Shown: positions 9,364 to 51,259 of the stretch, piece by piece
Layout of the letters: every line of letters begins with the position of its first letter
How positions within the stretch are numbered: position 1 is the first letter of the stretch
Source of the DNA: Patescibacteria group bacterium
GTDB lineage: Bacteria > Patescibacteriota > Patescibacteriia > UBA10025 > JAHIVO01
DNA length: 64,000 bases
Reading direction: 5' to 3'
Assembly: GCA_028718605.1 (NCBI GenBank)
Contig: JAQULM010000001.1
Coordinates: 413,719 to 477,718, forward strand
Translations under genes and position numbers: made by a program
The notes under the pieces: generated by a model
Database searches by the model: none
What the model was told of the DNA's origin: nothing
What the model saw: the letters and a program-made list of their open reading frames with translations, nothing else

Positions 9364-9379
9364 AAAAGCGTCCGTTGGT

Positions 9380-9819: not shown

Positions 9820-11205
9820 TTACACGCCGAGCGTGCTATTTAAATTATTGATCGCGAGGAATTCTTCCATAAGAAGCGTCGGATGATTTTCCTGTGCGCG
9901 TCTCGTGAGTATCTGCTCAATTGACCGATTCGTGTCAATGCTCTCTCGGCCGATATCAATATAAAGTTTGAATACGGGCGCGAGTTTCCATGCGCCAACC
10001 CCCTCGCTCCGGCGCTGATATGAATCTTCTTCGAGGAGATCAATTTTCTCCAACACTTTCTCCGCGGACTCCTGTGGATTTGTGCCGAGCCTTCTAAATT
10101 CCTTCAAATCAATTTCCCCAATTTCCTCAACAGGACCGACAATGTGCATCGGTTGGCGAATATCTACCATCTGGGGACGGTCAGGCTCGATCGATGACGG
10201 GATTGGTGTGCGCTTCGGCAGCTCTTCGGGTGAACGCGCGTAAAGCGATACGGCTTCTGCGCTCATGGGTTGGACCGGCTGTGGCGCCGGTACGGCAGGC
10301 GTTTCCTCAATGGGCACTGAACGCGCTGGGGCAACTGGCTCGACAGGCAACGGAGTTACGGATTGAAGAGCAGGTGGTTTGACTGGTGCAACCTGCTGTG
10401 CCGGCTCTGGCGGGATCTGTTCGACAGAAGGAACAAATGGTTTTGGAAGTTCTTTCTTCACTTCGCCGGGTTTCGGAACAAACGCCGGTGGCGTTGGTGC
10501 AAACATGCCTCCCTGCCCGACGAGGTCCACGCCCCATTTCTTGAGGTTCGCCCGTGGTGCTTCTGCCGTTCGAGGCTGCGCGGCGACGGCGACGCCCGCC
10601 TCATGGAACACAGCTGCCCTTTGTTCCGCAAGGTTGAGCACACGATCCGCCTCGGCTGATGATAACTCTATTCCGCCAATTTTTTTCGGCCGCATGAGCA
10701 CTTCCCGCGCCTCAATGGACGTCCTGATATCACGCAGGCGCGATTCGAGTACCTTTGAAAACCTCTTTATCAAGAGATCGTCTTCGAGCCGTACGCCGCT
10801 CTCACGAAGGATTTCCTCAATGGCTGTATTGAGGGCTACGGTGGCAGCCAGCTGCGGAGCTCCGCCCATTGCTTCGAGATCACGGGCATGCTGCTCGATT
10901 TCCTCAATATCCTCCGGCTCCAAGTTGAGCGGCGCCTTCCCTGCCGACATAACGGGCATTGGCCGCGGTGCTATTGCCGCGGATGGGGCGGGTTTCTGCG
11001 GCACAAACAGAGGGGGTGTAACAGGCGGCATGGGAGGTTTCGGAAGCGGTTCCGGAGCAGGCGGCTCACGGCGGGCGGGAACCGCGGTTTTCGGTACTGT
11101 TACGTCAACGATCTGCCCGTCCTCGACTTTTTTGAATTGGCCGCTTTTATCGCGTATCAAAAAACTCTGCGATAGATCAGAATTGTTTGGATCATTCACG
11201 TCCAT
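9820..11205 (-). CDS. Pro-rich hypothetical protein (first gene of the T4SS-like operon)
   Basis: 461-aa ORF with PxxP-rich segments and a conserved-looking C-terminal ~100 aa. There is no TM and no recognisable catalytic motif. Confidence 0.45.
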   Translation of the reverse strand: MDVNDPNNSDLSQSFLIRDKSGQFKKVEDGQIVDVTVPKTAVPARREPPAPEPLPKPPMPPVTPPLFVPQKPAPSAAIAPRPMPVMSAGKAPLNLEPEDIEEIEQHARDLEAMGGAPQLAATVALNTAIEEILRESGVRLEDDLLIKRFSKVLESRLRDIRTSIEAREVLMRPKKIGGIELSSAEADRVLNLAEQRAAVFHEAGVAVAAQPRTAEAPRANLKKWGVDLVGQGGMFAPTPPAFVPKPGEVKKELPKPFVPSVEQIPPEPAQQVAPVKPPALQSVTPLPVEPVAPARSVPIEETPAVPAPQPVQPMSAEAVSLYARSPEELPKRTPIPSSIEPDRPQMVDIRQPMHIVGPVEEIGEIDLKEFRRLGTNPQESAEKVLEKIDLLEEDSYQRRSEGVGAWKLAPVFKLYIDIGRESIDTNRSIEQILTRRAQENHPTLLMEEFLAINNLNSTLGV

Positions 11206-25006: not shown

Positions 25007-25017
25007 AACTGATGCCA

Positions 25018-25382: not shown

Positions 25383-25463
25383 AGAATTACCGTTAGTATA
25401 CTCGGTTTAACTGCACATTCGCAAATCAAAAACAGCCCCTAAAAAGGCCTTCCGCTGAAATAA

Positions 25464-29794: not shown

Positions 29795-29830
29795 CAATAC
29801 TAAAAAACCGAATGCCTCCCAGTGGGAATT
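29795..29830 (-). terminator. Rho-independent terminator for the giant operon
   Basis: On the minus strand: CGAATTCCCACTGGGAGGCATTCGG (nested CGAAT/ATTCG and CCCA/TGGG stems) followed by TTTTTT, 17 nt after the stop at 29847. Confidence 0.6.
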
Positions 29831-29846
29831 CGCTTTATTCCTTATT

Positions 29847-31877
29847 CTAGAGTGTCTGGGCTTCTCCGATTCTGAGAAGCTTGTCAACGAAGGCGTCAAT
29901 TTTTCGCGAAGATTCCTGCGCAATCCGGTCTTCTGCCGCCCTCATTTCTGCTGTCCGGCCTGCAGGGTCAAGGTCCTCGCGCGACTGCAGCTCTTTTTCG
30001 GCGTCCTTCAAGCCAGAGTGTATATAGTGTTGTTCCAGCGACCTCCCATCCGATGCAACAAGGTCGCCGAGCAGGATCCTGATCTCATCCCCGCATTCCT
30101 GGTGTGCGATTGATTGGAGGGTTTGCTCAACCTCACGGGCGTTTGATTCGTACCGCTTCGCTGGGTCGCCGGGAACATCGGCTTTCCAGAAGCCTTTCAC
30201 GTTGGTCTGCGCTTCTGCTATCTGGCGCTCAATCTGCCGCTTTGATTCAAGCCGATTCTCACGTTCAGTGTCGGACAGCGAATGTGAAGTAAGGACTTCA
30301 CGGTCAATATCATCGCGCAAGATCGCCAGGGATTCCATGCGTGCTTCTGCGCGCGGCGAGATGCGGTCCGGGTCCCACTCAACCGGCTTGCCCATAGCGC
30401 GTGCCATCGATCCGACACTCTCCTGGGACGCCATGCCCTTGCGCGCCGCGTATTTTGTGCTGCAGAGCATTTCCCGGATCTTGATAAGCTTCATGATCAT
30501 CATGCCATTCTGGGTATCGACGCCGTACTCCTCTGAGACAGCCGCGACCGAGCTGTATGGAACTGCCTGTTCAAGATATGCGCCGTACGCACGCTCTCGC
30601 GCAGGAGGGGTTTTGTCGACATACCCCCGGTCCCATGGAAATCCGGATTTCTGGGCATCAACCTTGCCGTGGTACTTCAGATTATAAACTGCTTCAACAA
30701 CTGTGGGATTATAACCGACAAGCCGCTTGAAATCATTGACCATATTCTCCCGCGCGCTGATGGCACCATCATCGCTGGAGGTCTGTGAAAAACCGAGTTT
30801 CACGGCGTGCTGATTGTCAACGAAATTCCCCGACGGATCAAAATACCGCCCGAGGATTTTCTCTGGCACCTCAGTTTTAAGCCGCCGGAATTCACCGATA
30901 TTCTGGCCGTGGAGCAGGCGCATGAACATCTCAAACTCAAACGTGCCTTCTTTGGGCGCCTCTTTCGATGTTACCATTTGGCCGTCCTCGTCGTCTTCCC
31001 ATTCCTGAGACTGGAAAACGTTTCCGGACACCGTGCCGAGGAACTCCCTGTTTCCCATTTTCATCGCTTCCCCGACAACCTCATCGCGGCGTTCCCGCTC
31101 GGACATCATGTAGTAATTCCCCGTCTGAAAATCTTTCACACTGACGACCTGCTCCCAGTGCCCGGTTTTTTTGGCAAGCTCCGACATGACCGCGAGCGCG
31201 CGCATCCGGCGCTGGTCTTCTGGCCCCGCTTCATTGCCAGCCGCTCTCGTATCACCGCCATCAATATACTTCCGGTCCAGGCCGAGATACGCAGAGGAAA
31301 ACTGGCGGATTGTTTCTGCATTACACTCCGTGAGCATCCGCCGTACATCTTCCTGGGAATACCCGAGCCGCGAGAACATCTGTTCAATATCATGCTGGAT
31401 TTCCTGATCTTGCCGGTACAGTTTCCCGAACCCCTCAACGACACGGTCCATGCGGCCAGACGTTGCGGCAAGTTCGATGAACGCCTGCTTCATGTCATTG
31501 CCCTCCCTCCCGCGCGTATAGAGCGCACGCCTGCCGAGGTCAACAAGCACCTGTGGATTATCACCGAGCGTGCCCATCTCTGCCCGAAATTCAGACACGA
31601 TCTGTTGAATCACTCTCCGATCCGCCATTTCCGCCCGATCGATGGCGCCGCCGCGCCGGCCAAAAAGCCTATTTGCAAAACTTTCGCCTGCCCCAAAACT
31701 ACGCGTGCGTGCCCGGTCGTCGAGCCGCTCGCCACGTTGGTTAAAACCTTTCACGCGGTCTGGAATCTCGTCTCGCCTGATCCGGGACATCCTATCGCTG
31801 CCTGTTCCCGGGCTTAATATTTCGAAAATACCCATACGAACGGTTGTCAGTTTCTCGTATGCACTACTCCACCTCAC
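29847..31877 (-). CDS. Hypothetical 676-aa protein, paralogous to the central region of the 2082-aa VirB6-like giant protein
   Basis: Blocks such as QAFIELAATSG...GFGKLYRQD, RRMRALAVMSELAKKTGHWEQVVSVKDFQTGNYYMMSERERRDEVVGEAMKMG and EGTFEFEMFMRLLHGQ align with QAFLELATSKG..., RRLRAMAGIAESAKNVGHWEQYSATKDMATGQYYMMDDEEQRGEIIGEAKKMG and EGSFEHEMYTKLMSGQ in 33255..39503. Confidence 0.6.
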   Translation of the reverse strand: MRWSSAYEKLTTVRMGIFEILSPGTGSDRMSRIRRDEIPDRVKGFNQRGERLDDRARTRSFGAGESFANRLFGRRGGAIDRAEMADRRVIQQIVSEFRAEMGTLGDNPQVLVDLGRRALYTRGREGNDMKQAFIELAATSGRMDRVVEGFGKLYRQDQEIQHDIEQMFSRLGYSQEDVRRMLTECNAETIRQFSSAYLGLDRKYIDGGDTRAAGNEAGPEDQRRMRALAVMSELAKKTGHWEQVVSVKDFQTGNYYMMSERERRDEVVGEAMKMGNREFLGTVSGNVFQSQEWEDDEDGQMVTSKEAPKEGTFEFEMFMRLLHGQNIGEFRRLKTEVPEKILGRYFDPSGNFVDNQHAVKLGFSQTSSDDGAISARENMVNDFKRLVGYNPTVVEAVYNLKYHGKVDAQKSGFPWDRGYVDKTPPARERAYGAYLEQAVPYSSVAAVSEEYGVDTQNGMMIMKLIKIREMLCSTKYAARKGMASQESVGSMARAMGKPVEWDPDRISPRAEARMESLAILRDDIDREVLTSHSLSDTERENRLESKRQIERQIAEAQTNVKGFWKADVPGDPAKRYESNAREVEQTLQSIAHQECGDEIRILLGDLVASDGRSLEQHYIHSGLKDAEKELQSREDLDPAGRTAEMRAAEDRIAQESSRKIDAFVDKLLRIGEAQTL

Positions 31878-33225
31878 TCACGAGCGTTCCCGCTTGAATG
31901 CTGTTCTTGGCCCACTCAAACCCTCCGGTTTCAGGATTTCCATATGCGAGGCTCTGGTACTCACCGCCCATAATCTGGCTTACTTCAACGCCAACCAGGG
32001 CAGAATCGTTTTCTGTCATGCCGAGCCGTTCTTTCAGTAAGTACTGGAGAAGCTCGGAAACAACCGCTGGCGTCGGCGTTGTTGAACGAATATTCGCCGT
32101 CGCGCTTTGCATGTCTGCCGGGGTACAGCTCTTCTGGTACTTCTGTTCAACGTGCTGTGAGATCGCCTCAAGCCATGCAGGGCTTGCCGCAAGAGCTGCG
32201 ACGAGCTGCTGCCCTTGAGCGAGAATTTTCAGGCATGCGATTACTCCTTTTTTGTCATTCGAACGCGCTGCCTGGGATAACGCACGTTTTACCCCTTCGA
32301 CATCTCCCTGCGTCCGGACAAGGAGCTCGTCTTCCAGCCGGAGCACTTCCTGCCGTTGTATGCGATATGATTGGTATTTCTGCTTCAAAATTTCTATGGG
32401 ATCAAGGTTCGGTTGCCGCAATGCTGGGGGCCGCTGTACAGGACGCGAAACGGTGTCCGGCGTACGGAGGGGTTCCAATGGTATGCCGCGCTTCTCTATT
32501 GGTGCAGTTCCAGAGCTTGAAGTGGCTAGCGGCGATACAACCATATCACGAGCCATTTCTACGAGCGGGGGGAACCGGACAAAATCATAAATCTGCAAAA
32601 TTTTCAAAATTTGCTCGCGATCCTGCGGTGCCATCTGGATTAGCGTTGGGGTGTTATCGATATACCGCACTTCCTCGAGGCTTCCCCGTTCGACTTCTTC
32701 CTTCGCGAACCGATTGTAATCAAGGATGATGCTGCGCACGGTAGCAGGCATCGGTTTATCGGACAGGTGCTGGCGGATCATCACCGTGCCGACACATTCA
32801 TTGTTCTCAGAAAAAGCCCGCAGCAGATAATCCCGTTTTTCGCCCCGTAAAAAAGGGTCCCAGGTATTCCGGAATAGCTCCTTCACGCCAGCGCGGATAT
32901 CGGTACCCAGGTCCAAGCCAACAATAAGCTTTTCCTTCAGCAGGCGGTACAATTCTTCATCGAGCAGAAAGGGGAAGTCGATAAACTGGAGCCAGGTTGC
33001 CATCCCAGTGTAGAAACTAAAAGCGGGCTGGTGCTCATGTTCAAATATTTTGTCTGCCAGTATATAAGTTCGCAGGAACCCGAGGAGGCGAGCTGCGTCA
33101 GCATAGTTGCGCGTCCGTTCAATCTCCAGCACCCGCGTACCAATACCCCCATACACGCTTGGCCTAGCGAGTTCCTCTTGGGGGAGCTTCAGAATGTCCC
33201 CAATTTCACACGTTTTAAAATCCAT
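31864..33225 (-). CDS. Hypothetical protein (453 aa)
   Basis: ORF between the VirB6-like giant gene and its paralog; no recognisable motif. Confidence 0.45.
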   Translation of the reverse strand: MDFKTCEIGDILKLPQEELARPSVYGGIGTRVLEIERTRNYADAARLLGFLRTYILADKIFEHEHQPAFSFYTGMATWLQFIDFPFLLDEELYRLLKEKLIVGLDLGTDIRAGVKELFRNTWDPFLRGEKRDYLLRAFSENNECVGTVMIRQHLSDKPMPATVRSIILDYNRFAKEEVERGSLEEVRYIDNTPTLIQMAPQDREQILKILQIYDFVRFPPLVEMARDMVVSPLATSSSGTAPIEKRGIPLEPLRTPDTVSRPVQRPPALRQPNLDPIEILKQKYQSYRIQRQEVLRLEDELLVRTQGDVEGVKRALSQAARSNDKKGVIACLKILAQGQQLVAALAASPAWLEAISQHVEQKYQKSCTPADMQSATANIRSTTPTPAVVSELLQYLLKERLGMTENDSALVGVEVSQIMGGEYQSLAYGNPETGGFEWAKNSIQAGTLVSEVE

Positions 33226-33254
33226 GTTGATTATTATCTAACTTTATACAACGC

Positions 33255-36200
33255 TTACTCTGCCGCTGGCTGTTCTCCAGAGCTTTCCTCCGATTCAGCG
33301 GACGCTTTCCGAGGCGTTGGTTGTGTTTTCTGTGCTGTTGATGCTCTCCGCGCGTCATCAACGACTTCAGAGGCACGGCGCGTCTTCGCATCACGCATCG
33401 CTCTCGTCAGCTCCTCGAGACGATAGAGCATGAGCCGCGGATCATACGTGCCCAGGACACCGCCCTGCGGACCGCCTGGAAGCATACCCTGGCGCATCGA
33501 TTCAACGATCTTGGTCAGGTCTTCAGAAGCTTTTTTTTGGTCAGGGTTCATAGATTCACCAAGTGCTTTCATGCGCTCTTGCATTGTCGTTACCAAATCG
33601 CCAAGGCCTTTTTGGATAGCCTCCATGACCGCCGGCAAATCCTTGGCTGCGCCTGCCGTCTGCTCAATTGCTACGCGCAACTCATCGCCAATCGCACCGA
33701 GGCTCTCCACGTTCTGCTGGACTTGCTCGCTGCCGAGCACCGGACCTGCAACGGGGGTACCGCTCTTGAGGTCTTCAAGCACCGTCCGCTCATCAGCAAT
33801 AGACTGTGCAAGCGCTTCAATCCCTTTCACGGAATCACTGTGGCCGCCTTGCTCGAGTGTAGCGCGGACTGTTGCATTCTTGAGTATGCCATCAGCATCA
33901 ACATCCCCAGAGAGCCCCGCTTTTTCCTTGAGGTTTGCCACGGCCTCAGCAAGCTGGCTTTCGGCTGCTGCGATGACCTGCTGCTGTGCTCCGATAATTT
34001 CTTCCGCGGTCGGCGGTTTTGTTCGTGGCGCAGCTGTTTCTAGTGTCTCATCTTTCGCTTTTCCGGCTTGAGGCCGAGGAGTTGTTGGTGCCGGAGTGGG
34101 CGTTGGGGTTGGTGCCGCTGGCGCTGGCTTCGCGCCCGCACGCTTATTCACGGCATTTTTCAGCTCTGCCTGAGCTCGTGCTTCAGCCTGGTACCGCTTG
34201 GCGTCGCTCCCAAACGCATCCCCCGTAGATTGAATCTCGCCGATAGTTTGTTGAGTCTCAATAATTTCCGCTTCTTTCGCTTCAATCTTCTCGTCATGCT
34301 CCTCAAGCGCTCCCTGGAGTTTGGCGGCGCGCAACGAATTTGCTTGAGTAGGCGGAATGTCATCAACCGCATGCTGGAGTGGTATGCGCTGCTCTTGGAG
34401 AGTGGCCAATTCTGCCTGCTGGCCTGCGAGTTTCTGTTCGTGCGGTGCAATCGCGGGCTCATTGTGCTGCTGAATCCCGCCTGCAAATGTCGCTGATGTT
34501 ATTGCACCGAGATTGCTCGCTTCAAGCCCTTCCGTCGCCATCGTCTTGAATTCCTCGAGCTCATCCGGTGAAAGTTTGCCGGCAATCTTCTCAAACGTCT
34601 GGCGGAGCTGCCCCATGGTCGCAATGTCGTCCTCGACAGCGGCCGCGTATGCAAGGTCAGCCTGCGAACGGGCTTGCTGCGCCTTCTCTACTTCGGCGTT
34701 CTGCCTATCGATGTCCCCCTGGAGACGCTTCAAACCCTGCTGGCCTTTGAATGCATCGAGCTGGTGCTTGCTGGCTTCATCGAGCGCCTGCTGCCGCGCA
34801 GCGCCGGTCAGGCCGCCCGCGCGGCGGGTCGCATCGCGTGCCTTTTCGTTGTTCTCGGCGATCTGCACTTTCGCCTGTTTCTCCTGGTGCCGCATGCCAT
34901 CACGCTTCCGTACCTCTTCCTCGTAGTGCGCTTTTGCCGCGTGTTTTTGATCGCGTTTGCCAGCAACATCATTCTCAGCAAACTGTTCAGAATAATTATC
35001 GATAAGATCATTTACCTTTTTCACGCGCTTGCCATATTTGCGCTTTTGCCACCATTCGCGCGTACCGTGCACGGCGCTCGAAACGCCCTGAGCGACCGCC
35101 TTTGGTGCACGGCCGACAAGCTTCGCGGGGCGCACAATGCCATATTCAACAACATCATCGAGATGGCTCGCCTCCCACAGCTCCGGAACTTTCTGTTTTA
35201 CCTTATTCTTCACGTTCACGGCGGTACTCTTCACCTTGCGTGCGGCATCGCCTGCAACCTCCACGCCCCTGCCGGCGACGTACTTGCCGCGCGCCACCAT
35301 GCCGACCATGGCAAGCTCGCGGTCACTGACTGCCTCATCCGCGAAGTCTTTATCGATAAACTCGTCGGCAGATTCCGGCTCCGGCGCCGCACCTTTAACT
35401 CCTTTTTCAAAGAAATCAAGCTTTTTATCCTGTAAAAACTGCTTCGAATCGCTTCCAAGCTGGTACTTACCCTCGCCGACGCCCAAAGATTCAGCCGCGA
35501 ACTCCATCATGCCGATGCGGTCCACGAGCTGCTGCTGTTCCTCGGAAAGCGTCTTGTAGAATTCCTCCCCGACCTCGTTCATCGTGCCTGTTTCGAGGTT
35601 AACAAAATTCTTTGCCAGGTCATGCCCGCGCAATTCATGCCCGCGGATTGACTGTATCCTGCTCTCCCATGCGTTATTATCAGCGAGCACGATCTTATCG
35701 TTTGCTCCTAGCGTCTTCTTCAGATTGCCAACCTGGTCGGCAATCTCGTCGTCGCCAACGCCTTCACTGCGCAACTGCTGCTCGAGGGCGGTTGCGAGTT
35801 TTTCTGCCATCTGCCCTTTCTCCTCCTTATGCGCTTCCGTGTCGCTGTCAAATCGCGCAGCAATCTGCCCCTCGACGATGCCGAATTGCTCCCGAACTGC
35901 CGGGTCAGAAAAGTCGAGGCCGAGCATCGTCGCATTGCTTGCGTTTTTACCCTGGCGTTTCGCGCTCTTGCCGGATGCGACCGCGGACTTCAGGCCGCGC
36001 ATCTTCTTCACGTCTGCTTGCGCGCCAGCCTCAGCGCGGCGCTCAAGCTCGTCGGAATCAACCATCTCGCCTGCGGTAATCTCGTCCTCATACATCGTAT
36101 CATAATCAGCGGCAGAGAGGCCCGATTCCTTATACTTATTGTATTCCGCATGTGACCGCGAGAGTGTTTCCGCAGATACTTCTTCCCGCATGCGCGGCAG

Positions 36201-39503: not shown

Positions 39504-39528
39504 TTACTACCCTCGCCGACAGCAGCGC

Positions 39529-42500: not shown

Positions 42501-45500
42501 GGTCGGCAGGCCACCAGTTCAGGCAGTACGCCGGATTCAGCGGATCGCGCTCCAGGCAGTACCCTTCCCATCCGCGGTACTCGATGCCGTTCTCGTCCGT
42601 GTACGCGCAGTACGGCGCTGACGCATTCGGGTACAGCCGGCACGACCGCGGTATGAGCGACCCGTCCTCCTTGTACTTGAGGGCTGGCTCGATTGAGATA
42701 TCGTCGACAAAGAATTCCACGCCCGGTACGGTCACGATATTGCACGTGTCGCCGACGGGGCAGTCCGCGTCAACGTTGCAGGGGACGTTCGGATTCGCAT
42801 TGCACATCTGCGGCTCGTCGTGGAAATGGATGATATTGAGCAGTGCGTCGTTCCAGCCGGTTACCTCGGCGCCGCCGATGGGATCCCACCCTGCCTCGAT
42901 AGGCCCGAGCGTGAACTGCTGCCAGTCCTGCGTAAGCTCCACGTCCTCGATCGCGCTCCAGCCGATCTCGTTCCCGCGCGCATCGAGATACCCGAATTCA
43001 ACACGAATTTTGTCATACACCGTCGGTAGTGTTGCCCACCGCAGTTTCAGCGAAACCACGTACTGGTCGCCGTCGATAAGGTTGCCAGTGCCGATATCGT
43101 AGGACAAGCCATTCCACTGCGCGGTGCCGATTGTGCCGTCGTTATTCGTATCGTTGCCGGTATACCCGCTCGTTTTAACGCGCGCGACATTATTCTCATC
43201 GAGATTGCTGTTCTGCGACGGAACGCCCCCGTTATTCACGTCTTCTTCGGTCCACTTGACCGTCGCGACGCCATCAAACCAGTTCCGTGGCTGCCACGCC
43301 GAATCAAGCTCGCTGAGATCAATCTCGTCAACGGTTGGCCCTGCATCAGGGCTGCCGCCATAATCACTCGATGTAGTACAGCTCGCGGTGGCGCCGCCAG
43401 TCAGTTCACATGAGAGCTTCTGATTTGCTTCGTAATCTCCGTCGCCAAAATCGCCATTTTTTGCCAGATCCGTTCCGCTCGTCACGGATCCGGCTTCTTC
43501 CATCGCCGGATACAGGAGCGCACCCTCGACAATCTGCGGATCAGAGCATGTGCCTCCGGCACCGCATTGCGCGTCGCTCGTGCAGATAATATCTTTATTG
43601 TTCTTGCATCGGCGTTGCCAGTCGAGTCCCGCCATGACCATGCCAGAATAATTATGCACTTTCTCGGCGAACGCAGGGGACGTAAACGTTTGATCAACTT
43701 CCTCGTAATCAACAACGCCTGTGCAGACGCCTGTCGCCTCATCCATCTTGTCACAAATAAACCGGGACGTGCATAGTTCCTGGACATTGCCGTTTTTATC
43801 TTCTTCGCGTACCGTTGTTTCGCACGCAAGCCATTTTCCGCACTCGCGGTCTGGCCGCACCTTCACGACTGAATTAGAATCGCATGTCGTCGGATCATCA
43901 ACACACGTTGCGGGCTCCTCGCCGTCGACTGAAGCAGATGAGCTGTACGGCAAATCGCTACGCGACATGTCCTCAAACAAGCGGCATCCCGCATCGCGGC
44001 TGACAAGGCCATTGCATGACGATGAATCAATCGTATCGCTTAAATAATAGTACGATGCATAGTCTGCTTCTGCGCTGACCTGCTCTACCTGCACCTGATC
44101 AAGAATAACATCGCACACGGGGGTTGAAGCGGCAACTCCTGGCCTGCGGAATACGACCGAGAACCTGTTCTGGAGCTCCTCGAGAGTTGTGCCCCCGGAC
44201 GGATTCCACTCATGTTCCACGCCGTCGCCATCAATGAATGGGGTCGATGGTATTGATATAACATATTCATACTTTTGCCAACTGTCGGTGGTATGGAAAA
44301 ATGCGCCTGGCAGGTACTGCACGCCGTTTGGCAGCACCTGGTCAACCGTCCGGACAGCACCAACGCTGACCCCGTCATACGTCGGATCTGCCAGCACTGT
44401 ACAGCGTGGGTCATTAGGATTGCGTTTTGCCCAGAAAGAAATTCGGAACGTCTTATTATCCGTCAGGCTTCCCGTATCTATCCCGCGCCATTGGTAGTGG
44501 GCAGCATCATTCCATGGTGCGTTCGTGCAGTTCTGATACGACCTGAAGATCGCCGCTACCGCTCCGTCATGAGCATCGGACGTAGCGATCAAACGGTCAC
44601 CGCATGGCTGCCGCGCTTCACCGGGTCCTGGCAAGTCGCACGTGGAAGCTGCTCTATTGCAGGTAGTGCCGCCCGCCTCGCACGTGCCTGGGCACGCAGC
44701 GCCTGCGCACGTAACGCAATCATTATTGTCATCACAGTACGTCGCGCCGCCGCCGCACCCGGATGTATAATCAGTATCGCATCGTCCGCAGTCGATGTTG
44801 GAATTGCATGCATACCCCGCCTGCGGGCCGCCTGCCGTACACAATCCGAGTTTGGTAGACTGGTTCCCCCAGTCGAGGAATTCATCAGGTACGTAGCAAT
44901 CGAGGTCAACGGCACATGGGTACCCGCTCTGCTGGCACCTTCCTGCGTTGCACGTGTCGTTGTCGATGATCGCGTCAGTTACAATGCCCGCATCGGCGAC
45001 ACTATCAATGCTCTCAAAGCTGCCGTTTGTCAGAAAATTTTGGGACAACACTTCAGCATTGTCAGCTATGCCCTCTGGATCACGGTACTCCGTGCAGCCA
45101 GACACGGATTCTTCGCACGATCCCACCCAGCCATCAACGGGTTTTGGGGTGATGCGGTCATCTTTCAGGCAGTTGCCGCTGTCGCAGTCGTCCGAGGAAT
45201 TGCACAGCGCACCTTCATTTGCTCCGCCGTTGTAGCACGTGCCGATCGACACCGGGCAATCCGGGGTAGCGCTTGCTGATCCGTTCTTGAACCATCCTCC
45301 TTTATCTTTTTGGTATGAGCATGTCTTTTTCCCGGGTTCCTTGAAATACATCTGGGAGCCGCTCCCCGTCGTGTACTCTTCGCATCCGTTCTCGTTGTAC
45401 AGGCACATCTCGGTAGCGTATGCATCGGGATCATTTATCATATATGAATCGCCATACGCACTAACGCTGCCGTCCGCATTCGTCAGAGGAAGCCCCATGC

Positions 45501-48500
45501 GCTCGCAACCCTTACTGCCGGCACCGCACGCTTTATCTGAATCATAGACGTAGTACCCTACGGTATCCTGGCTAATGCTGGGATTAATGTCATAGTGGAG
45601 CGATGACGGCTCGGGTCCGCCCCCAATGTAACTCTGGAAGTTATTTCTATCAGTGGCATCAACTGATCCATTTTCATCGAAATCGCCGACCAAGAGAGGT
45701 ACTGGCGCATAGCTCGTTCCGCTCGATAAATACCTATTCAGTATGTCAATATCATACCGGTTAATACGGCCATCGTCATTCAGATCGCCGCGCAGGTAAC
45801 GCGCGGTTGTATATGACATGCTCTCATACATTTCCGTGTTGTACGTATCGATGAATATATCACATCCAACTTTTGACTTATCGCACAAGCGACGGAATGA
45901 TTTCAGGTAATGCACCGTACCGGCACTGTCAGAATAAGCATCGCATCCTTCCCATCCCGAACAGTCTTGGTACGAATCCTTGATAAGGTACACGCTGTCA
46001 TATACCTCGGTAATTTCAATATTATCGACATAGAACGCACTGTCACCATATATCACGAGCTGGTTCGCGCTGATATCAGCGCTCTCCGGCAAGTAGAGCG
46101 GGCCTAGTACGAACTGGTTCCATTCGCCAGTTTTTGCTACGGCTTTGCCCGAAAATACCATCGCAGGCGTCGAATTAATGGCGACGGTCACCGGCACATC
46201 GGAGCCCGAGACGGCTGATTTTACCCAGAGTGAAACTGAATACTGCTGTCCGCCTGGGAGGGTAATCTGCGAACCGACGTTACTGATCGCGGCGCTGTTC
46301 GTTACTGCCATCGAATGCCCGTTCAGGTTGAGAGACTCATTGCTGTAGCTCGCATCGCCGGACCATAGGTCGATTGATCCGGACTCAAAATCTTCACGGT
46401 ATACCTGGCGGGTATTGTCGCCCGCGTTGCCTTTATATGCGCGGCAGCCCGCATTCGATGCAGTGCACTGCACGCCCTGGTTAGGGATAATATGGTAAAT
46501 CGATCCGCGGCAATCTTCATCGTTGATGGCGCCGTCGCTATTCGCATCAACACACGCGAGCCCTGAATTTGTGCAAATGCCGTCAGCGCACGATGCGGTG
46601 CTGTCAACGGAATTCTTATACGATTTACAATCGTCAGAGACATAGATCAGGCGCGTCCGCAAGCGGTAATATACATTGCCGAGCGAATCGAAGAATTCCG
46701 TGCAATCAGGATTATCTGCCATGTCCGCTGCCGTGCAGACCTGCTGGGGATAATCCGCCGTACCATCCCCGTCGACATCAAGATTATCGATGCACGCTGG
46801 CCAGTCCTCGCCCAACGCTACGAGTGCGGGATCATTTTCTGCACCGACGTTCGTGCACGGACCATTGTCAAGATTGCTCTTCTTCAGATTGTACCGACGC
46901 AGCTGGTACCCAAATTCATCAGACCCCTCCCATGTGTAGTATGCGCCCGTATCCGGATCCGACGTCTCTACGCACACTTTTATCTTGCTGTAATACTCCT
47001 TCCCTTCGCCGCCCGCGGCGACATCTTCAAGATTCGTATATTCTTCGCATCCGACAGCAGATGCGGGGCACGACATGCCAGTAGTCGAAACGAACGAAAC
47101 GGGATCGCGCACTGGCCGCAGCGGCATCCGATCAATCTCGAGCTCCCGGTATGCCTGGCAACCGACGAATTCAGCAGAGCACTGATCGCAGGAAAACGGA
47201 TCCGCAGCGTTGCACAGCCCCGGCGGGGAAATGATCCCGGTAATCTTCCTGCCGGTCGTCTTCGATGTAAATTCCTCACATCCGACTTCTGTTTCCTGGC
47301 ACTGTAGCGTATAACTCGCGCACAAAGGATCATCAGTCACGGCATTGCCCGTGCAATTCAGATACGATGGAGGTTTCTTGAAATATGTCTTCGTCGATTC
47401 TTCGTACTCTTTGTATGGGGTAAGGGTATTCTCCTCCATCTGGAAATCATCAATGATGACGTCACATTGATCGGTCAACGGCCGCACGATTGAAGCGAGA
47501 ATAAGCGGTTCCCCTGCCGCTACCCGAAAAGTTATTTTCGGAAATGTAATCGTCCCCGTATACCGTGTCCACTGCCCAGAAGTGGCTACGTTCATGACAT
47601 TGGTAAACATGCCACCCCCAATAACTGCATCCGGCTGGCGGTATGCCCATACGCTCAAGCTTCCAGTATCCGATGTGCAATCAGCATCATCAGCCGCCTG
47701 TTTCGCATAGAGCGAGAAAGTAAACGTACGCTCGTTTGTTGATGCGCCGACATCAGCAATTTGTGCGGTATATGTACCGTCCTCAAATGGGGTACCGGTC
47801 CAATCCGGATTACCCGGACAGGGTGGCAGCATACTCGTCCGCAATGCCGTTGAGCCGCTGTAGCTGTCCGACACGGCGGGCGACTGTAAACCACAGAATG
47901 AACTTAAAATTGGCCAGTATGTAAAAAGTTCAGAAGCCGCATCGTCCTTAACAGCCAGCGGATTCTGCTCATACGATTCAAAACTGCTGTTCAGGAGAAG
48001 GTTCGCTCCGTCTCCTTTTACGCGGATAAACTCACTGCACCCATCCGCTGATACATTACACGTCCTCGCATTCGCATTCAGGCTGATAACCGGATCGGTA
48101 GCGTCATTGGGCTTCAGGCCGTCGCATGCCCACGATTTTGCCGTCGAGTTATACTCACGGCAATACCACTGGCACCCGACAGTATCGATCGAGCAACTAT
48201 TGGTATTCACGGTGTCGGTAAGGTATGACACCATATCGCCGCTCCTGCGTGTCAGCAGCGTGCAGCTTGTTTCCCACGGTTTGCACTCCGTAGCGTCAAA
48301 GCGCCATACGGCTTTTTCTTCCATGCAGTACCCCCATACAGAGCACGATCCTTTCTCGTCTTCCTTGAGGCACTGTTTCTCATCCGCGCAGTAGTCTTCT
48401 TGGCGCTGGATGAGAGTCGAAGCGGCATCTGCCGTATCAACCTTTTCGTCGCGATTCGTATCCTCCGCGCGGATGGCCGTCTGGTAGGTAACCTGCGGAC

Positions 48501-50298
48501 CAGCACCCTCGCGCGCGCAATACGTCTCGGGAATCTTCAGAACCCAGTTCGGGTCAATCAGCTGGTAGAACGGGGACTTCGGATTATCATATTCGCCAAT
48601 AATATCATTGAGCGTATAGTTGCCTCGCGCGTACTGCCCGATGTATTTCGCCGCCAGCTCCCACCCCACGGGAATAATGCGGTATTTCCGCAGAATCACC
48701 AAGCTCCGGTACGGGTACCCTTCGCGATAGTCCGGCTGATTGCCGGCGATATCATACCCAAAAGGTTTATTTCCATCCAGCAATCCCTGCTCAACAGCAT
48801 CACGAACGAGCATCTTCTGGCTGATAGCAGTGCTGAACCGGGAATCAATAACGCACGTCTGGGGTGTCGGGTCGTTCTGGTTCGGACAGCTTGAGAGGCC
48901 CGAGAGTATGTCCACGTTCCCGCCCTCAGAATAGGAAGTCTGCTTCAGCTCCTTGAACCGCAGCTTGGCGGCAGTAACGCCGGGTGATGATGCGCCAAAC
49001 TTGTTTGAGCCTCCCGCATACGATGAGGCAGTTGCTTCATCGAGACCGTTGAGGTAACGGTCGAGCAGTTTGTTGGCGAGTGTGTTTGTAAAAATTCCGA
49101 CTGCGTCGGCGACAAGGCTGCCGGTGTACGTAAGGTACGGATCGATTGACTTGCCGAATAATGACGTGCCAGCGCCGCGAAGAAACGCGGCGGGTGTCTT
49201 CACCACGCCGGTAATCTTGGACGTGACAGCCTTAAATTCCCCCTGGAGCGACTGCGTGAACTCGGTTGCCTTTTCGTTCACCGCTTTCGTCAGCTTCACC
49301 TGGTCTCGGATAGTCATGTACGCGCCGTACTCGCTGGCTTTGGGGTTGAATTTTTTTGAAAATTCGATGAGGTACTGCGTACCGGGATCAACTTGGACTA
49401 AGTCTTTTGTATCAACGCCGAGGCTCTTTGCGAGCTGGTTATAATGCTTCTGCAATCCTTCGCGATATCCATAATAATTATCCAGTATCTCCGTGATCGG
49501 ACAGTCCCCCTTGTAGCTTGTCCCTTTATCGTACTCATAATCCGCTTTGCGTGCCATGATAGTCAGCTTCACTTGCAGGTTGCCGCTTGGATCCTGGGGA
49601 TCGCCGAGATCGCACAGAGAAAACGAGCTTACGCATTCACCCGCACCGTCCTTTTTGATAAGGCGCGGTTTCTTCGCATCCGTCGGCTGCTTTATCATCT
49701 TCTCATCAAAAATTTTGTACTCATCCGCAGTTTCCATAATGGAAATATAGCAGCCGGCAGCAAGGCATTTCTTTTTCGCGTCGAGGCTGGAGGAGCATTC
49801 CTCCAATGAAAGATTTTGCGGGCATATCATGACCGGCGGCGGGCATTTTGAATCGGTTTTGCAGCCCTGGTACGGGTGGCCATCACACTGCGATTTTCCA
49901 ATCCAGTCTGATGCGATAGAATCGAGGAGATCGCCAGCCGCAGCATCACCCGCGTCCTTGAGCATCTTCATCGGATCGCCCACAAAATACGGCTTCTGGC
50001 CTTTCTCGCCGGTCGCGAGCTTTACCGCGTAGTTGTATGCGAGCGCATTAACATAGTTTTTCAAAACATTTTTAAACGCGATATCCTTGGCAGTTTTAAC
50101 CGCCTTCGAGATCGCATCGCGTATTGCCGCCGGAATATCGCCGATCGTAATGCTCATATCTCCCATGCCAAAAATGGCATCCGCGTGGCGCGGGATGAGG
50201 GCGACCGGTGCAACTAACTGCAGCGCGAAAAAAGCGAGAGCGCCAATAAGCGCCCACCGCCGCATCTGTCCGCGAAATATGTTTTTGAATCGCCTCAT
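39529..50298 (-). CDS. Giant (3589 aa) secreted Cys-rich surface protein with dockerin-like and PKD-like modules
   Basis: Signal peptide MRRFKNIFRGQMRRWALIGALAFFALQLVAPVALIPRHADA; hundreds of Cys in spaced CxxxxDC / CxxGxC repeats; dockerin-like DLNDDGRINRYDIDILNRYLSSG...GDFDENGSVDATDRNNFQSYIGG (nt ~45618..45800); C-terminal VQFTFSISADPEQSPITFVEVDWDDGTPHY is PKD-like. Confidence 0.7.
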   Translation of the reverse strand: MRRFKNIFRGQMRRWALIGALAFFALQLVAPVALIPRHADAIFGMGDMSITIGDIPAAIRDAISKAVKTAKDIAFKNVLKNYVNALAYNYAVKLATGEKGQKPYFVGDPMKMLKDAGDAAAGDLLDSIASDWIGKSQCDGHPYQGCKTDSKCPPPVMICPQNLSLEECSSSLDAKKKCLAAGCYISIMETADEYKIFDEKMIKQPTDAKKPRLIKKDGAGECVSSFSLCDLGDPQDPSGNLQVKLTIMARKADYEYDKGTSYKGDCPITEILDNYYGYREGLQKHYNQLAKSLGVDTKDLVQVDPGTQYLIEFSKKFNPKASEYGAYMTIRDQVKLTKAVNEKATEFTQSLQGEFKAVTSKITGVVKTPAAFLRGAGTSLFGKSIDPYLTYTGSLVADAVGIFTNTLANKLLDRYLNGLDEATASSYAGGSNKFGASSPGVTAAKLRFKELKQTSYSEGGNVDILSGLSSCPNQNDPTPQTCVIDSRFSTAISQKMLVRDAVEQGLLDGNKPFGYDIAGNQPDYREGYPYRSLVILRKYRIIPVGWELAAKYIGQYARGNYTLNDIIGEYDNPKSPFYQLIDPNWVLKIPETYCAREGAGPQVTYQTAIRAEDTNRDEKVDTADAASTLIQRQEDYCADEKQCLKEDEKGSCSVWGYCMEEKAVWRFDATECKPWETSCTLLTRRSGDMVSYLTDTVNTNSCSIDTVGCQWYCREYNSTAKSWACDGLKPNDATDPVISLNANARTCNVSADGCSEFIRVKGDGANLLLNSSFESYEQNPLAVKDDAASELFTYWPILSSFCGLQSPAVSDSYSGSTALRTSMLPPCPGNPDWTGTPFEDGTYTAQIADVGASTNERTFTFSLYAKQAADDADCTSDTGSLSVWAYRQPDAVIGGGMFTNVMNVATSGQWTRYTGTITFPKITFRVAAGEPLILASIVRPLTDQCDVIIDDFQMEENTLTPYKEYEESTKTYFKKPPSYLNCTGNAVTDDPLCASYTLQCQETEVGCEEFTSKTTGRKITGIISPPGLCNAADPFSCDQCSAEFVGCQAYRELEIDRMPLRPVRDPVSFVSTTGMSCPASAVGCEEYTNLEDVAAGGEGKEYYSKIKVCVETSDPDTGAYYTWEGSDEFGYQLRRYNLKKSNLDNGPCTNVGAENDPALVALGEDWPACIDNLDVDGDGTADYPQQVCTAADMADNPDCTEFFDSLGNVYYRLRTRLIYVSDDCKSYKNSVDSTASCADGICTNSGLACVDANSDGAINDEDCRGSIYHIIPNQGVQCTASNAGCRAYKGNAGDNTRQVYREDFESGSIDLWSGDASYSNESLNLNGHSMAVTNSAAISNVGSQITLPGGQQYSVSLWVKSAVSGSDVPVTVAINSTPAMVFSGKAVAKTGEWNQFVLGPLYLPESADISANQLVIYGDSAFYVDNIEITEVYDSVYLIKDSYQDCSGWEGCDAYSDSAGTVHYLKSFRRLCDKSKVGCDIFIDTYNTEMYESMSYTTARYLRGDLNDDGRINRYDIDILNRYLSSGTSYAPVPLLVGDFDENGSVDATDRNNFQSYIGGGPEPSSLHYDINPSISQDTVGYYVYDSDKACGAGSKGCERMGLPLTNADGSVSAYGDSYMINDPDAYATEMCLYNENGCEEYTTGSGSQMYFKEPGKKTCSYQKDKGGWFKNGSASATPDCPVSIGTCYNGGANEGALCNSSDDCDSGNCLKDDRITPKPVDGWVGSCEESVSGCTEYRDPEGIADNAEVLSQNFLTNGSFESIDSVADAGIVTDAIIDNDTCNAGRCQQSGYPCAVDLDCYVPDEFLDWGNQSTKLGLCTAGGPQAGYACNSNIDCGRCDTDYTSGCGGGATYCDDNNDCVTCAGAACPGTCEAGGTTCNRAASTCDLPGPGEARQPCGDRLIATSDAHDGAVAAIFRSYQNCTNAPWNDAAHYQWRGIDTGSLTDNKTFRISFWAKRNPNDPRCTVLADPTYDGVSVGAVRTVDQVLPNGVQYLPGAFFHTTDSWQKYEYVISIPSTPFIDGDGVEHEWNPSGGTTLEELQNRFSVVFRRPGVAASTPVCDVILDQVQVEQVSAEADYASYYYLSDTIDSSSCNGLVSRDAGCRLFEDMSRSDLPYSSSASVDGEEPATCVDDPTTCDSNSVVKVRPDRECGKWLACETTVREEDKNGNVQELCTSRFICDKMDEATGVCTGVVDYEEVDQTFTSPAFAEKVHNYSGMVMAGLDWQRRCKNNKDIICTSDAQCGAGGTCSDPQIVEGALLYPAMEEAGSVTSGTDLAKNGDFGDGDYEANQKLSCELTGGATASCTTSSDYGGSPDAGPTVDEIDLSELDSAWQPRNWFDGVATVKWTEEDVNNGGVPSQNSNLDENNVARVKTSGYTGNDTNNDGTIGTAQWNGLSYDIGTGNLIDGDQYVVSLKLRWATLPTVYDKIRVEFGYLDARGNEIGWSAIEDVELTQDWQQFTLGPIEAGWDPIGGAEVTGWNDALLNIIHFHDEPQMCNANPNVPCNVDADCPVGDTCNIVTVPGVEFFVDDISIEPALKYKEDGSLIPRSCRLYPNASAPYCAYTDENGIEYRGWEGYCLERDPLNPAYCLNWWPADLLMGDTNIFSNLRTAGYDGRRPLYMCLEQEGNYNKPKSVSFGLVDTFQATRQVSNGKGSTGHGGGCRITFEESPLIGKPFKYRAPMTTNFIDQDGTSECDEAGNMGGAAYSCAWDGGWRNGFCMSCDCDDDEQCTRGYNNLITAHPEDRYYKYEIERIDVLMVHWSHGDWECGHYGVGDGDNHYFMTLNEEDAGGGPCGGATNCWGERWTCSGNYIDFAVIFNDAGQITHFRTSMHDGNNGGGAHYLPIFQLRESCSVLAQVADDDNDRAWTARVSEGSAFQVPALLYKYTQQFAPFGTVVAPAGDPTAWDYATHTGPLYVESRSDASFAHAGTPYSSPYNTVANGLLGQHIKYCTNNTGNWCDSAAAVTACTTGGGKCVGGRQCSWRWANDCATRLDEVNCHEGDDGTVGTDDDGYCVGIGVGFCSGNAEAYCAIDADCSYGGRNYGPCIMDGGTYGMKTATPTPDTNYAEAIRYSKRLFANAFNAWTWDIATCDRSNFTDLIRCTAGDDSTCEFRRCGAIGTCYGGAEDGEPCGGTCAAGDNASLSCATNADCPDSTCTPIPGGYTCTGGTCQTNHTMACAGAADCQHLACADNALQECFNRCDNNSGPRTGHVCTVNADCRSFIWPAGNCVTSDFDCRVYGCSTALGVCSNSSAYCQVTADCGGAPAVCNTGLCRAGANDGARCRIAADCPGGTCEATRIGCSDNVECTGVGVCSHDSTVLCQADTDCKNGSCSVTTSVECHVDTDCPGGETCAGATATCENERNWGSCAVVDTYGTCQSTTFGSCRTDDYGACTAPAGSMSYAENSGFINTWNTAYNTMAVCPYSTAQGKAVRPEYVQGLDVDYCGVPPIIHTILVGAGGSLEETDSITIPGGGVVQFTFSISADPEQSPITFVEVDWDDGTPHYVTTGRYESGTISLSHQYRIPGPHIPKIKVVDNWDWCGVLKDSGESCPGFGDCRFNVDLDDCDFEGGRDGLTSTGVTITVTQ

Positions 50299-50324
50299 GT
50301 GTACGTCGCGCCGTTAGATCTGGA

Positions 50325-51218
50325 CTATTCGCTCGTACCCAAATTGGTTTCTAAGCTCTCTAAATAAATTGCTCGTAACGTTTCATCGTCGATCTGATTC
50401 AAAGTTTCAGCAGCGATGCCGCTTTCAGCGAGGAGCTCGCGGATTTCATCAGGTGTCAGCGACTGTAGCCTCTCATAGGTTATGGAGTCGGTCGTTACGC
50501 TGTTTGTCGTTGCCTGTGCATTCGTTGCACTATTGGCATTTACCGCGGTATTCGTCCCTGTTTGTCCACCGACAATATCGAGGTACGCTGCCTGTAAATC
50601 CTCATCGCTGATACTGCTCAAGAACTCTTCGGACGCGCCCGCATCACGCATAATGGATCGAAGTTCGTCCGCGCTTAGATTTGAGAGATCAACTTGCGTC
50701 AGAGGCTCACTATTGGTGCCCGCCGTGATATCATTGACGAGCCCGCTGACATTCGTGTTCGCATTCGAATTCGTTGCTGTTTCCCGCCCGCATGTATCGC
50801 CCGCCGGACAATTCGGATCTTGCCCTGCGGCAAGCTCATCTTTATCACTCGTCCCGTCGCTATCGCTGTCAGCAATATACGGGCTGGTGCTAAACGTATA
50901 AAGCTCGTCGTAATCATTCAAACCGTCACTATCAGTATCTTTGGCGCGGAGGGACTCAAGCCGTTCAACCGACGTCTGCGATGTATTCAAGGTCGCGAGG
51001 TCTTGGTTCGACAAAAGTACTTCATATTCAAACGGGTTGCTGATCTGCATACCAATGTACCAAATTCCAAATGCGACAACAGCTGTTCCGACGACAATTG
51101 AAACAACGACCGTACGGGTCCGCTCTTTCCGTCGAGCTTCGTCTGCCTCGAAATACGGATCGCTGAAGAGTCGCTGGAGCAAATTTTTATTTTGATTTTC
51201 CGGCATCTTGGGTGCCAT
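50325..51218 (-). CDS. Membrane-anchored Ca-binding (thrombospondin-type-3-like DxDxDG repeats) protein with two ~40-aa C-terminal repeats
   Basis: TM VVVSIVVGTAVVAFGIWYIGM; DTDSDGLNDYDELY...DSDSDGTSDKDELAAGQDPNCP (nt 50799..50942); repeats DLSNLSADELRSIMRDAGASEEFLSSISDEDLQAAYLDI and LQSLTPDEIRELLAESGIAAETLNQIDDETLRAIYLESL (nt 50352..50693). Confidence 0.55.
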   Translation of the reverse strand: MAPKMPENQNKNLLQRLFSDPYFEADEARRKERTRTVVVSIVVGTAVVAFGIWYIGMQISNPFEYEVLLSNQDLATLNTSQTSVERLESLRAKDTDSDGLNDYDELYTFSTSPYIADSDSDGTSDKDELAAGQDPNCPAGDTCGRETATNSNANTNVSGLVNDITAGTNSEPLTQVDLSNLSADELRSIMRDAGASEEFLSSISDEDLQAAYLDIVGGQTGTNTAVNANSATNAQATTNSVTTDSITYERLQSLTPDEIRELLAESGIAAETLNQIDDETLRAIYLESLETNLGTSE

Positions 51219-51230
51219 AATGACCCTGCC

Positions 51231-51259
51231 ATTATATCACATTATCTCATGTCTGTCAA
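51231..51259 (-). promoter_or_regulatory. Near-consensus sigma70 promoter driving the giant operon
   Basis: On the minus strand: TTGACA (51259..51254), 17-nt spacer, TATAAT (51236..51231). The ATG of 50325..51218 is ~13 nt downstream, so the leader is very short. Confidence 0.6.

Follow-up and report, generated by a model that had tools for sequence, protein, structure and literature searches.

The window analysed here is a 64-kb stretch of contig JAQULM010000001.1 (assembly GCA_028718605.1) from a Patescibacteria group bacterium. Between positions 29795 and 51259 it carries five minus-strand open reading frames (ORFs), named g1 to g5. We consider it probable that they are the promoter-proximal half of a chromosomal, non-conjugative type IV secretion system (T4SS) cluster derived from the MPF-FATA (mating-pair formation) class, in which the giant secreted protein g2 would serve as a surface adhesin. 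Several lines of evidence carry this reading. The window encodes identifiable T4SS components, g1, g2 and g3 are linked to the distal T4SS genes across species, a conserved promoter precedes the operon, and g2 bears an export signal together with lectin and dockerin modules. The reading is compatible with transport in either direction, with effectors exported or with DNA or nutrients taken up from a host.

Results

Two halves of one T4SS cluster

Relatives of the N-terminal domain of g3 occur in at least 565 genomes. The locus survey kept one genome per species and analysed the 80 best loci, which are labelled L004, L006, L007 and so on (L004 and L005 belong to the same genome). Upstream counts are based on 51 loci, in which 8 kb or more of upstream sequence was available, and downstream counts on 57, for which the minimum was 9.5 kb. 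The usual order in related genomes is KsgA-g1-giant-VirB6-(g4)-o461-PrgI-TrsD-VirB4-o223-pilins/RadA, where o461 and o223 are conserved genes of the distal module. A g2-like giant (2,200-3,200 aa, 3-4% Cys, with a signal peptide) stands just upstream of the VirB6 gene in 39 of the 51 loci, and o461, TrsD, VirB4 and o223 follow that gene within about 10 kb in 47 of the 57, with RadA or the pilins next. The succession KsgA-g1-g2-VirB6-(g4)-o461-(PrgI)-TrsD-VirB4-o223 is unbroken in L004 (Parcubacteria), L014, L015 and L020. In 20 loci KsgA and the giant gene have a g1 orthologue between them, and in 10 related loci g4 comes behind the VirB6 gene. Few genes of the cluster are as conserved as o461, which is always placed between VirB6/g4 and PrgI/TrsD.

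All distal genes of this usual order are present in the window, at positions 2030-11205 and on the same strand as the operon (Table 1), VirB4 and PrgI lying some 24-30 kb from g3. The first-pass annotation, made from the sequence alone, had suspected that the operon and a distant T4SS-like module might be one functional system split across two loci. The partners that such a system needs are encoded there: VirB4, a TrsD-like protein, PrgI/VirB3, two proteins with pilin domains and an SLT hydrolase. The gene orders described above make the union of the two loci into one system well supported. What separates them in the window is a block at 11192-29746 that comprises a stand-alone PPDK_N (ATP-grasp) gene, two HAD hydrolases and six paralogues of about 500 aa with a C-terminal PEP-utilizers swivelling domain and unannotated N-terminal parts. 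Arrays of such paralogues also follow g4 in the nearest relatives (L006, L007, L013 and L029), and the cluster is unbroken in other genomes, so that the split is a derived rearrangement within a subclade.

Table 1. Features of the operon and of the distal T4SS module, in coordinates of the window
Feature	Position	Strand	Description
Promoter	51231..51259	-	TTGACA-17-TATAAT, extended -10 TGaTATAAT; sigma-70-type, 12/12
g1	50325..51218	-	297 aa; small Ca-binding-type protein; one N-terminal transmembrane anchor, residues 34-57
g2	39529..50298	-	3589 aa; Sec signal peptide; 185 Cys
g3	33255..39503	-	2082 aa from GTG, probably 2056 aa from ATG at 39425 (gene callers used ATG); extended VirB6
g4	31864..33225	-	453 aa; soluble; no recognisable domain
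g5	29847..31877	-	676 aa from GTG (662 from ATG at 31835); soluble
Terminator-like hairpin	29795..29832	-	9-bp bulged stem then U6; starts 15 nt past g5 stop codon
o461	9820..11205	-	461 aa; Pro-rich; no known domain; found in 48-50 of 82 loci
PrgI-family (VirB3-like) membrane protein	9380..9814	-	32.1 bits vs 27
TrsD/TraC-like	8674..9420	-	Resembles VirB4 N-terminal domain; L004 orthologue carries PF26593
VirB4 ATPase	6767..8668	-	CD1110 family (MPF-FATA type); NF045971 conju_CD1110 355.5 bits vs 325
o223	6057..6728	-	Conserved unknown after VirB4; found in 46 loci
VirB2-like T4SS_pilin-domain protein	4893..6011	-	372 aa
o422	3513..4781	-	Between two pilin-domain genes; weak beta-propeller (TolB-like) signal, E 8.7e-5, far below cutoff
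T4SS_pilin + SLT lytic transglycosylase fusion	2030..3508	-	492 aa; VirB2-like + VirB1-like
RadA	620..1966	-	Directly adjoins distal module

The T4SS_pilin domains of the distal module exceed their cutoff of 26.6 bits (30.5 and 28.0 bits), and the TrsD and VirB4 N-terminal matches, with E between 1e-12 and 2.5e-6, stay under the cutoffs for whole proteins. We observed that the VirB2-like domains are here embedded in proteins of 492 aa and 372 aa rather than forming small pilins. Neither a relaxase nor a coupling protein was found among the ORFs of at least 200 aa scanned in the 64-kb window.

A strict promoter shared by the gene-cluster family

The five genes had been described as co-oriented and closely spaced behind a near-perfect consensus promoter, and this description holds. 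The intergenic gaps measure 26, 25, 29 and 28 nt, with 103 nt between g2 and g3 if the latter begins at its ATG, and the promoter is in fact perfect, with an extended -10 element. It is the only 12/12 match in the 64 kb, where 0.18 matches with at most one mismatch are expected. Perfect 12/12 promoters with the same 17-nt spacer lie 5' of the g1 orthologues in six of ten distinct relatives (L011, L014, L015, L020, L051 and L061), a seventh has an 11/12 version, and these conserved promoters usually carry the TGaTATAAT extended -10. Their position is kept across species whose proteins share only 30-50% identity. This conservation is much stronger functional evidence than the consensus match itself, and the gene-cluster family as a whole has an unusually strict consensus promoter. 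The ATG of g1 is only 12 nt past the -10 hexamer, which would leave the mRNA nearly leaderless; no obvious Shine-Dalgarno motif precedes any of the five starts.

The second-best promoter match of the window, at 11/12 and of the form TTGACA-17-TATTAT, lies at 14360-14388 on the plus strand, upstream of a plus-strand ORF at 14494-15228.

At the other end of the operon, the intrinsic terminator that had been called clean did not stand up as such. The bulged hairpin with its U6 tract folds at -7.6 kcal/mol (z -0.65), no better than shuffled sequence. It is a plausible terminator, albeit weak and not distinctive.

g2 belongs to a large family of predicted multi-lectin, disulfide-rich surface proteins

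The Sec signal peptide of g2 has an AxA site that is kept in all 21 homologues examined. Its cysteines make up 5.2% of the protein and are commonly spaced by 6-7 residues. The earlier description of hundreds of spaced cysteines was correct as to the cysteine-rich character of the protein and too high as to their number, which is 185. A CBM_4_9 carbohydrate-binding module (CBM; PF02018), absent from that first account, occupies residues 1298-1396 (43.1 bits for the whole protein against a cutoff of 25.9). Further CBM-like modules occur near residues 770, 1758 and 2280, those near 770 and 1758 having a similar 'N-G/S-S-F-E' module start. The dockerin-like pair of Ca loops proposed previously could be verified: a type I dockerin (PF00404) at 1504-1555 scores 28.5-32.2 bits where 22.9 are required, its loops read DLNDDGRINRYD and DFDENGSVDATD, and it matches the solved dockerin PDB 4fl4_A with E 0.0016. 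Scans with Pfam and NCBIfam found no catalytic domain, glycoside hydrolases included, across the 3589 aa.

The C-terminal 100 residues or so (about 3455-3545) are conserved family-wide with the signature DWGDG...HxY...DNWGWC. They had been described as PKD-like, which is plausible from the motif, but every comparison with PKD profiles stayed below threshold: PKD_4 scored 15.1 bits against 27 in g2 (E 0.024; test with PF18911/PF00801), orthologous domains matched PKD_4 in 3 of 13 cases and PKD in 2 of 13 with a best E of about 0.005, and a profile of the domain gave a single PDB match, 4xed_A, at E 0.78. We also considered g2 as a polymorphic toxin and rejected this, since the protein carries at its C-terminus this conserved PKD-like module where a toxin would have a variable tip.

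An exhaustive HMMER search of representative sequences with the core of g2 (residues 300-720) recovered 1,167 clusters at 50% identity with E<=1e-30, nearly all of which measure 2,400-3,800 aa and carry the core N-terminally; word-indexed searches with the same core had given only 3 and 12 fragments. Fifteen diverse members align over their full length and have dozens of invariant cysteines in common. CBM_4_9 was found in 11 of them, and PA14, GLEYA and dockerin in one each. The dockerin, missing from most family members, and two cysteine-rich inserts specific to the window protein (1801-2000 and 3101-3400) are thus accessories of this lineage, and the trait of the family is its multi-lectin, disulfide-rich architecture. 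The core itself was modelled by AlphaFold2 (AF2) at a pLDDT of 54.5 and gave no meaningful Foldseek match (best E 2.7) and no PDB profile match. In the unbroken Parcubacteria cluster of L004, a DsbA/thioredoxin gene lies at 18989-19729 between the o223 orthologue and RadA; none was seen in the window. Such a gene fits the need of a cysteine-rich giant protein for oxidation.

The part of g1 predicted to lie outside the membrane comprises a pair of helical repeats and two Ca-binding loops of TSP3-like type. These DxDxDGxxDxDE loops, at residues 94-105 and 117-128, are in line with the proposal of TSP3-like Ca binding, but the profile match is sub-threshold (TSP3_bac, PF18884, 13.9 bits against a cutoff of 25, E 0.051). 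The MtsD thrombospondin-type-3 model gives E 3.6e-4, and TSP3_bac is flagged as 'faint' in the L004 orthologue. Among the extracellular modules first proposed or added here, the signal peptide, CBM_4_9 and the dockerin are thus solid, whereas TSP3 and PKD remain below threshold.

g3 is an extended VirB6-like protein with a long hydrophilic tail

The product of g3 consists of a VirB6-like domain (about residues 45-380), a juxtamembrane segment rich in lysine and arginine, a mid-domain (440-1072) and a charged, helical tail. That it is an extended VirB6 is supported by four observations. Precomputed annotations assign PF19590 (TrbL_3) to homologues matched at E 1e-40 to 1e-120, and more distant ones reach the PF04610 (TrbL) model, with a cutoff of 25.9 bits, at 30.2 bits (P0056, which passes) and 25.6 bits (P0030). 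The AF2 model of the N-terminal domain is all-helical, and its four best Foldseek matches are all TrwI, at 13-16% sequence identity and low TM-scores to PDB 7o3v and 8rt9. Seven to eight hydrophobic helices lie between residues 45 and 379. The gene keeps its place within a T4SS cluster. The VirB6/TrbL-like domain proposed for the 2082-aa protein is therefore supported by homologues, fold and synteny.

The relatives of g3 are mostly of 820-1,250 aa, and the window protein is the longest seen. After its last hydrophobic helix, 60 residues hold 10 K/R against 2 D/E. The tail (residues 401-2082, about 1,680 aa) has no cysteine, is about 32% charged and contains a linker rich in proline and threonine (PT-rich) at 1793-1809. 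Judging from the positive-inside rule, from the lack of cysteines and from the lack of an export signal in g5, the tail and g5 are most likely cytoplasmic, a placement that is not secure. g5 is a paralogue of the mid-domain (33% identity, E 1e-97 over residues 440-1072 of g3), which agrees with the duplicated-domain protein of the first-pass annotation. Sequence prediction gives it neither a signal peptide nor a transmembrane segment. The closest relatives, L006 and L007, hold the mid-domain inside VirB6 and have no separate g5 gene, so g5 is a lineage-specific duplication. Hidden Markov models trace the mid-domain in only 6 of 81 relatives, which suggests that it is fast-evolving or lineage-specific. 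Direct Pfam and NCBIfam scans gave no significant match for g3, g4 or g5, and neither g4 nor g5 has a PDB sequence match. A resemblance of g4 residues 287-380 to the Snf7/CHMP3 (ESCRT-III) hairpin (Pfam E 0.04, PDB E 0.23) is not significant and was treated as chance.

Genomic surroundings and taxonomic range

The window sequence is 99.98% identical to contig JAQTSE010000004.1 of NCBI assembly GCA_028711455.1, and a Logan contig assembled from SRR22315506 matches it at 100% identity. Neither Rfam elements nor tRNA genes turned up when the window was scanned. Homologues of the operon proteins come almost exclusively from metagenome-assembled genomes (MAGs) of Patescibacteria or the candidate phyla radiation (CPR), titled Falkow-, Uhr-, Veblen-, Buchanan- and Kuenenbacteria or 'Patescibacteria group'; we take the five names to belong within the GTDB class ABY1. 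Nearly all of the 80 genomes kept for their g3 relatives bear titles of Patescibacteria/CPR lineages or placeholder titles. Third-party annotation (TPA) MAG records named 'uncultured Gammaproteobacteria bacterium' (L007, L012, L015 and others) clearly encode clusters of the Patescibacteria type; these titles look like placeholders and are unfit for taxonomy.

The upstream flank of the operon is made of housekeeping genes (KsgA, a major facilitator superfamily transporter, Sua5, leucyl-tRNA synthetase and an M23/LysM peptidase), the downstream flank of the PEP-utilizers paralogues. The leucyl-tRNA synthetase (1058 aa, 54036-57212, minus strand) has a Ham1p_like domain (ITPase/NTP pyrophosphatase) at residues 245-386 (35.3 bits against 22.5), an insertion that separates its catalytic core from the CP1 editing domain. 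Genes of competence and recombination, a ComM-like ATPase (62694-63914) and RadA (620-1966), flank the region, as reported for ABY1 in a recent survey (PMC12102498).

Discussion

Relation to known systems

T4SSs with VirB4, TrsD, PrgI, VirB6 and VirB2, usually lacking a relaxase, have been published for Patescibacteria (Quinonero-Coronel et al. 2025, PMC12102498), so that VirB4, TrsD, PrgI, VirB6 and the pilins of the window are not new. The same survey places the T4SS loci of ABY1 near radA and describes KsgA as common near virB4. It also states that VirB6 was recognised in only 480 cases and that no adhesins were detected, and it contains no mention of giant or cysteine-rich proteins. In Southlakia epibionticum, the one species in which this was tested, the T4SS (SEML1_0006-0019) is essential for epibiotic growth (Wang et al. 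2023, PMC10633639), and its VirB6-like protein SEML1_0013 measures 1,088 aa and carries a tail of helical repeats. A 2024 perspective called the role of Patescibacteria T4SSs 'completely unknown' (PMC11665869). The window system shares with those of Southlakia and the 2025 survey a chromosomal MPF-FATA-like VirB4, TrsD, PrgI/VirB3, a VirB6-like protein, VirB2-like pilins and a cell-wall hydrolase, and it resembles them in the lack of a relaxase or coupling protein nearby, in its neighbours KsgA and RadA and in an extended VirB6 with a long helical tail. It differs from these published systems in being headed by g1 and a 3589-aa cysteine-rich protein with CBM and dockerin modules, of which neither paper, as far as consulted, makes mention, in a VirB6 about twice as long (2,056-2,082 aa), in a free-standing paralogue of the mid-domain and in the 18.6-kb block that splits the cluster. 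In the literature searched, no description came to light of the conserved g1-giant-VirB6 head, of how large the g2 family is, or of the conserved consensus promoter.

In pCF10 of Enterococcus faecalis, the surface proteins PrgA, PrgB and PrgC are encoded upstream of PrgH (VirB6), PrgI (VirB3), PrgJ (VirB4) and the PrgK hydrolase. The window cluster resembles this prgQ operon in placing surface or adhesion genes before the channel and the ATPase behind one strong promoter, both being T4SSs of the monoderm type; the roles of PrgB, PrgH and PrgI are described in PMC12857230. Unlike PrgB, g2 is about three times longer, disulfide-rich and devoid of LPxTG, and no polymer-adhesin Pfam domain was detected in it, which leaves it outside the PrgB-type family. 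Unlike pCF10, the window system has pilins and is not on a conjugative element. In the classical virB operon, virB5, which encodes the tip adhesin, lies directly upstream of virB6, just as g2 lies directly upstream of g3. The best structural match to the N-terminal domain of g3 is found in the TrwI/VirB6-TrwJ/VirB5 stalk of R388 (PDB 7o3v, 8rt9). The two systems differ in that g2 has no detectable similarity to VirB5 and in that the present host is a monoderm and lacks an outer-membrane core complex.

Extended VirB6 proteins are known as paralogues in Rickettsiales and as the 700-900 aa VirB6 of MPF-FA systems, where the extra domains have no known role (PMC12857230, a 2025 FEMS review). g3 resembles them in having a hydrophobic domain followed by large hydrophilic C-proximal domains, and differs in that its tail is about 1,700 aa long, cysteine-free, charged and helical, shows no sequence similarity to theirs, and has its mid-domain also encoded as a separate gene, g5. 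For g2, the nearest description is that of large cysteine-rich extracellular proteins in CPR Peribacteria, which average ~1,655 aa, have signal peptides and ~7% Cys and lack a functional prediction (Anantharaman et al. 2016, PMC4736985); a role in attachment was proposed for them and no linkage to a T4SS described. The likeness, that of large, cysteine-rich proteins with a signal, is by description only. Unlike those proteins, the members of the g2 family form a coherent group whose architecture is fixed, as is their place beside VirB6.

Points against the T4SS reading and alternative explanations

A number of observations weigh against the assignment of the operon to a T4SS with an adhesin at its head. 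The g3 sequence of the window itself matches no Pfam or TrbL profile even at E<=10, a comparison that the first-pass annotation had named among its refuting conditions, and a profile of its family retrieved no VirB6 from the PDB sequences, only low-complexity coiled-coil noise. The two halves of the T4SS lie about 18.6 kb apart in this genome, so that the case for their joint function is drawn from other genomes. In 12 of the 51 loci no g2 match occurs within 10 kb upstream of VirB6. The link of g2 with the T4SS rests on adjacency, which could also be explained by the co-regulation of an unrelated envelope protein. No LPxTG motif is present in g1 or g2, and g2 has no other recognisable anchor. 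The dockerin is confined to close relatives and to the single broader family member mentioned above, and the scanned ORFs of the window yielded no cohesin. As to the side on which the g3 tail lies, most VirB6 helices of R388 are outside the membrane (PMC12857230), and PT-rich linkers such as that of g3 are of a kind common in extracellular proteins.

Several of these observations fit the alternative that g1 and g2 serve the CPR cell as structural proteins of its envelope in general, or of an S-layer-like coat, with no role in secretion or in host contact through the T4SS, and stand beside the T4SS genes only because both sets of genes share high expression near one chromosomal landmark, KsgA. 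Large cysteine-rich extracellular proteins are common in CPR with no stated T4SS link (PMC4736985), and the 12 loci without a giant upstream of VirB6 and the conserved g2 core without a recognisable fold would suit such an explanation. Against it, the order g1-g2-VirB6 is kept in the 39 species-level loci despite identities of 30-50%, the conserved promoter is placed for joint transcription of these three genes, and CBM_4_9, PA14 and GLEYA suggest the binding of ligands over the formation of a lattice, so that we regard this alternative as distinctly improbable. A DNA-uptake T4SS, comparable to ComB or Ced, in which the giant captures polymers and VirB6 imports DNA for recombination by RadA and ComM or for nucleotide salvage, differs from the reading that we prefer only in the direction of transport and in its cargo. 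RadA adjoins the distal module, the ComM-like ATPase, of the Mg-chelatase family, lies at 62694-63914 (minus strand), T4SS loci of ABY1 commonly include comF, recG and radA (PMC12102498), and uptake of DNA or nucleotides by a T4SS was proposed for Saccharibacteria (PMC11665869). VirB4 also matches the DNA-import models CedB and CedD, but weakly, at 38.6 and 19.3 bits where the cutoffs are 700 and 600; moreover, nothing in g1-g5 resembles a DNA-binding protein and the CBM-type modules point to glycans. An uptake system of this kind is thus unlikely, if still to be taken seriously.

Two further explanations were rejected. The locus might be a conjugative or integrative mobile element, with the giant as the mating-pair adhesin found in Gram-positive conjugative plasmids. 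The CD1110 family of its VirB4 occurs in conjugative elements, and the gene order resembles that of pCF10, where the adhesin genes prgA/B/C precede prgH-prgI-prgJ (in part after PMC12857230). Yet the scanned ORFs of the window include neither a relaxase nor a coupling protein or an integrase, GC content is uniform over the 64-kb window, and the housekeeping flanks KsgA, Sua5, LeuRS (the leucyl-tRNA synthetase) and RadA recur in many species. No homologue was found in 72,556 plasmids, and the published survey has relaxases in only 103 Patescibacteria genomes (PMC12102498), all of which makes a mobile element very improbable. The idea that g2 belongs to a cellulosome-like apparatus for polysaccharide degradation, with its dockerin bound to a cohesin scaffoldin and no connection with secretion, draws on the 32-bit dockerin, its match to PDB 4fl4 and the CBM_4_9 module, a jelly-roll accompanied by a type-I dockerin with two Ca-binding loops as in cellulosomal proteins. 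Unlike these, g2 has no catalytic module, its dockerin is an accessory missing from most family members in which the rest of the architecture is conserved, and the window ORFs scanned include no cohesin, so that we give this idea hardly any credence.

A proposed mechanism and its implications

For the T4SS reading, a sequence of events can be proposed from the predicted properties of the proteins. The strong promoter would drive a single transcript, and g1, anchored in the membrane and binding Ca, would be exported by Sec together with g2. Outside the cell, g2 may fold into a long fibre stabilised by disulfides and Ca, whose CBM_4_9-type lectin modules would bind glycans of the host cell envelope and whose dockerin and PKD-like modules would mediate contacts with proteins. 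It might thereby take the role that PrgB-type adhesins or VirB5 have in other T4SSs, and we regard it as a candidate for the part of the system that contacts the host. The translocation channel would have at its base the VirB6 domain of g3, acting with VirB3 and VirB4. In a system that lacks a coupling protein nearby, the cysteine-free tail of about 1,700 aa, g5 and g4, most likely cytoplasmic, might provide a platform for the recruitment of substrates. More tentatively, and with considerable doubt, the g2 family might be the missing host-recognition part of Patescibacteria T4SSs as a whole, an analogue of VirB5 and PrgB that docks on VirB6 and selects the host by the glycans of its envelope, the g3 tail, g5 and g4 replacing the coupling protein.

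Our analysis indicates that a large branch of the phylum heads its T4SS cluster with a Ca-binding membrane protein, a secreted lectin-like protein of 2.4-3.8 kaa and an extended VirB6, all behind a conserved promoter. Even if the link between these proteins and the T4SS were only one of co-regulation, it would still bring a cleaner annotation of widespread giant genes that are at present unannotated. The head of the cluster offers a simple genomic marker for finding T4SSs in Patescibacteria, and g1, g2 and g3 are concrete candidates for the proteins involved in host contact and host specificity.

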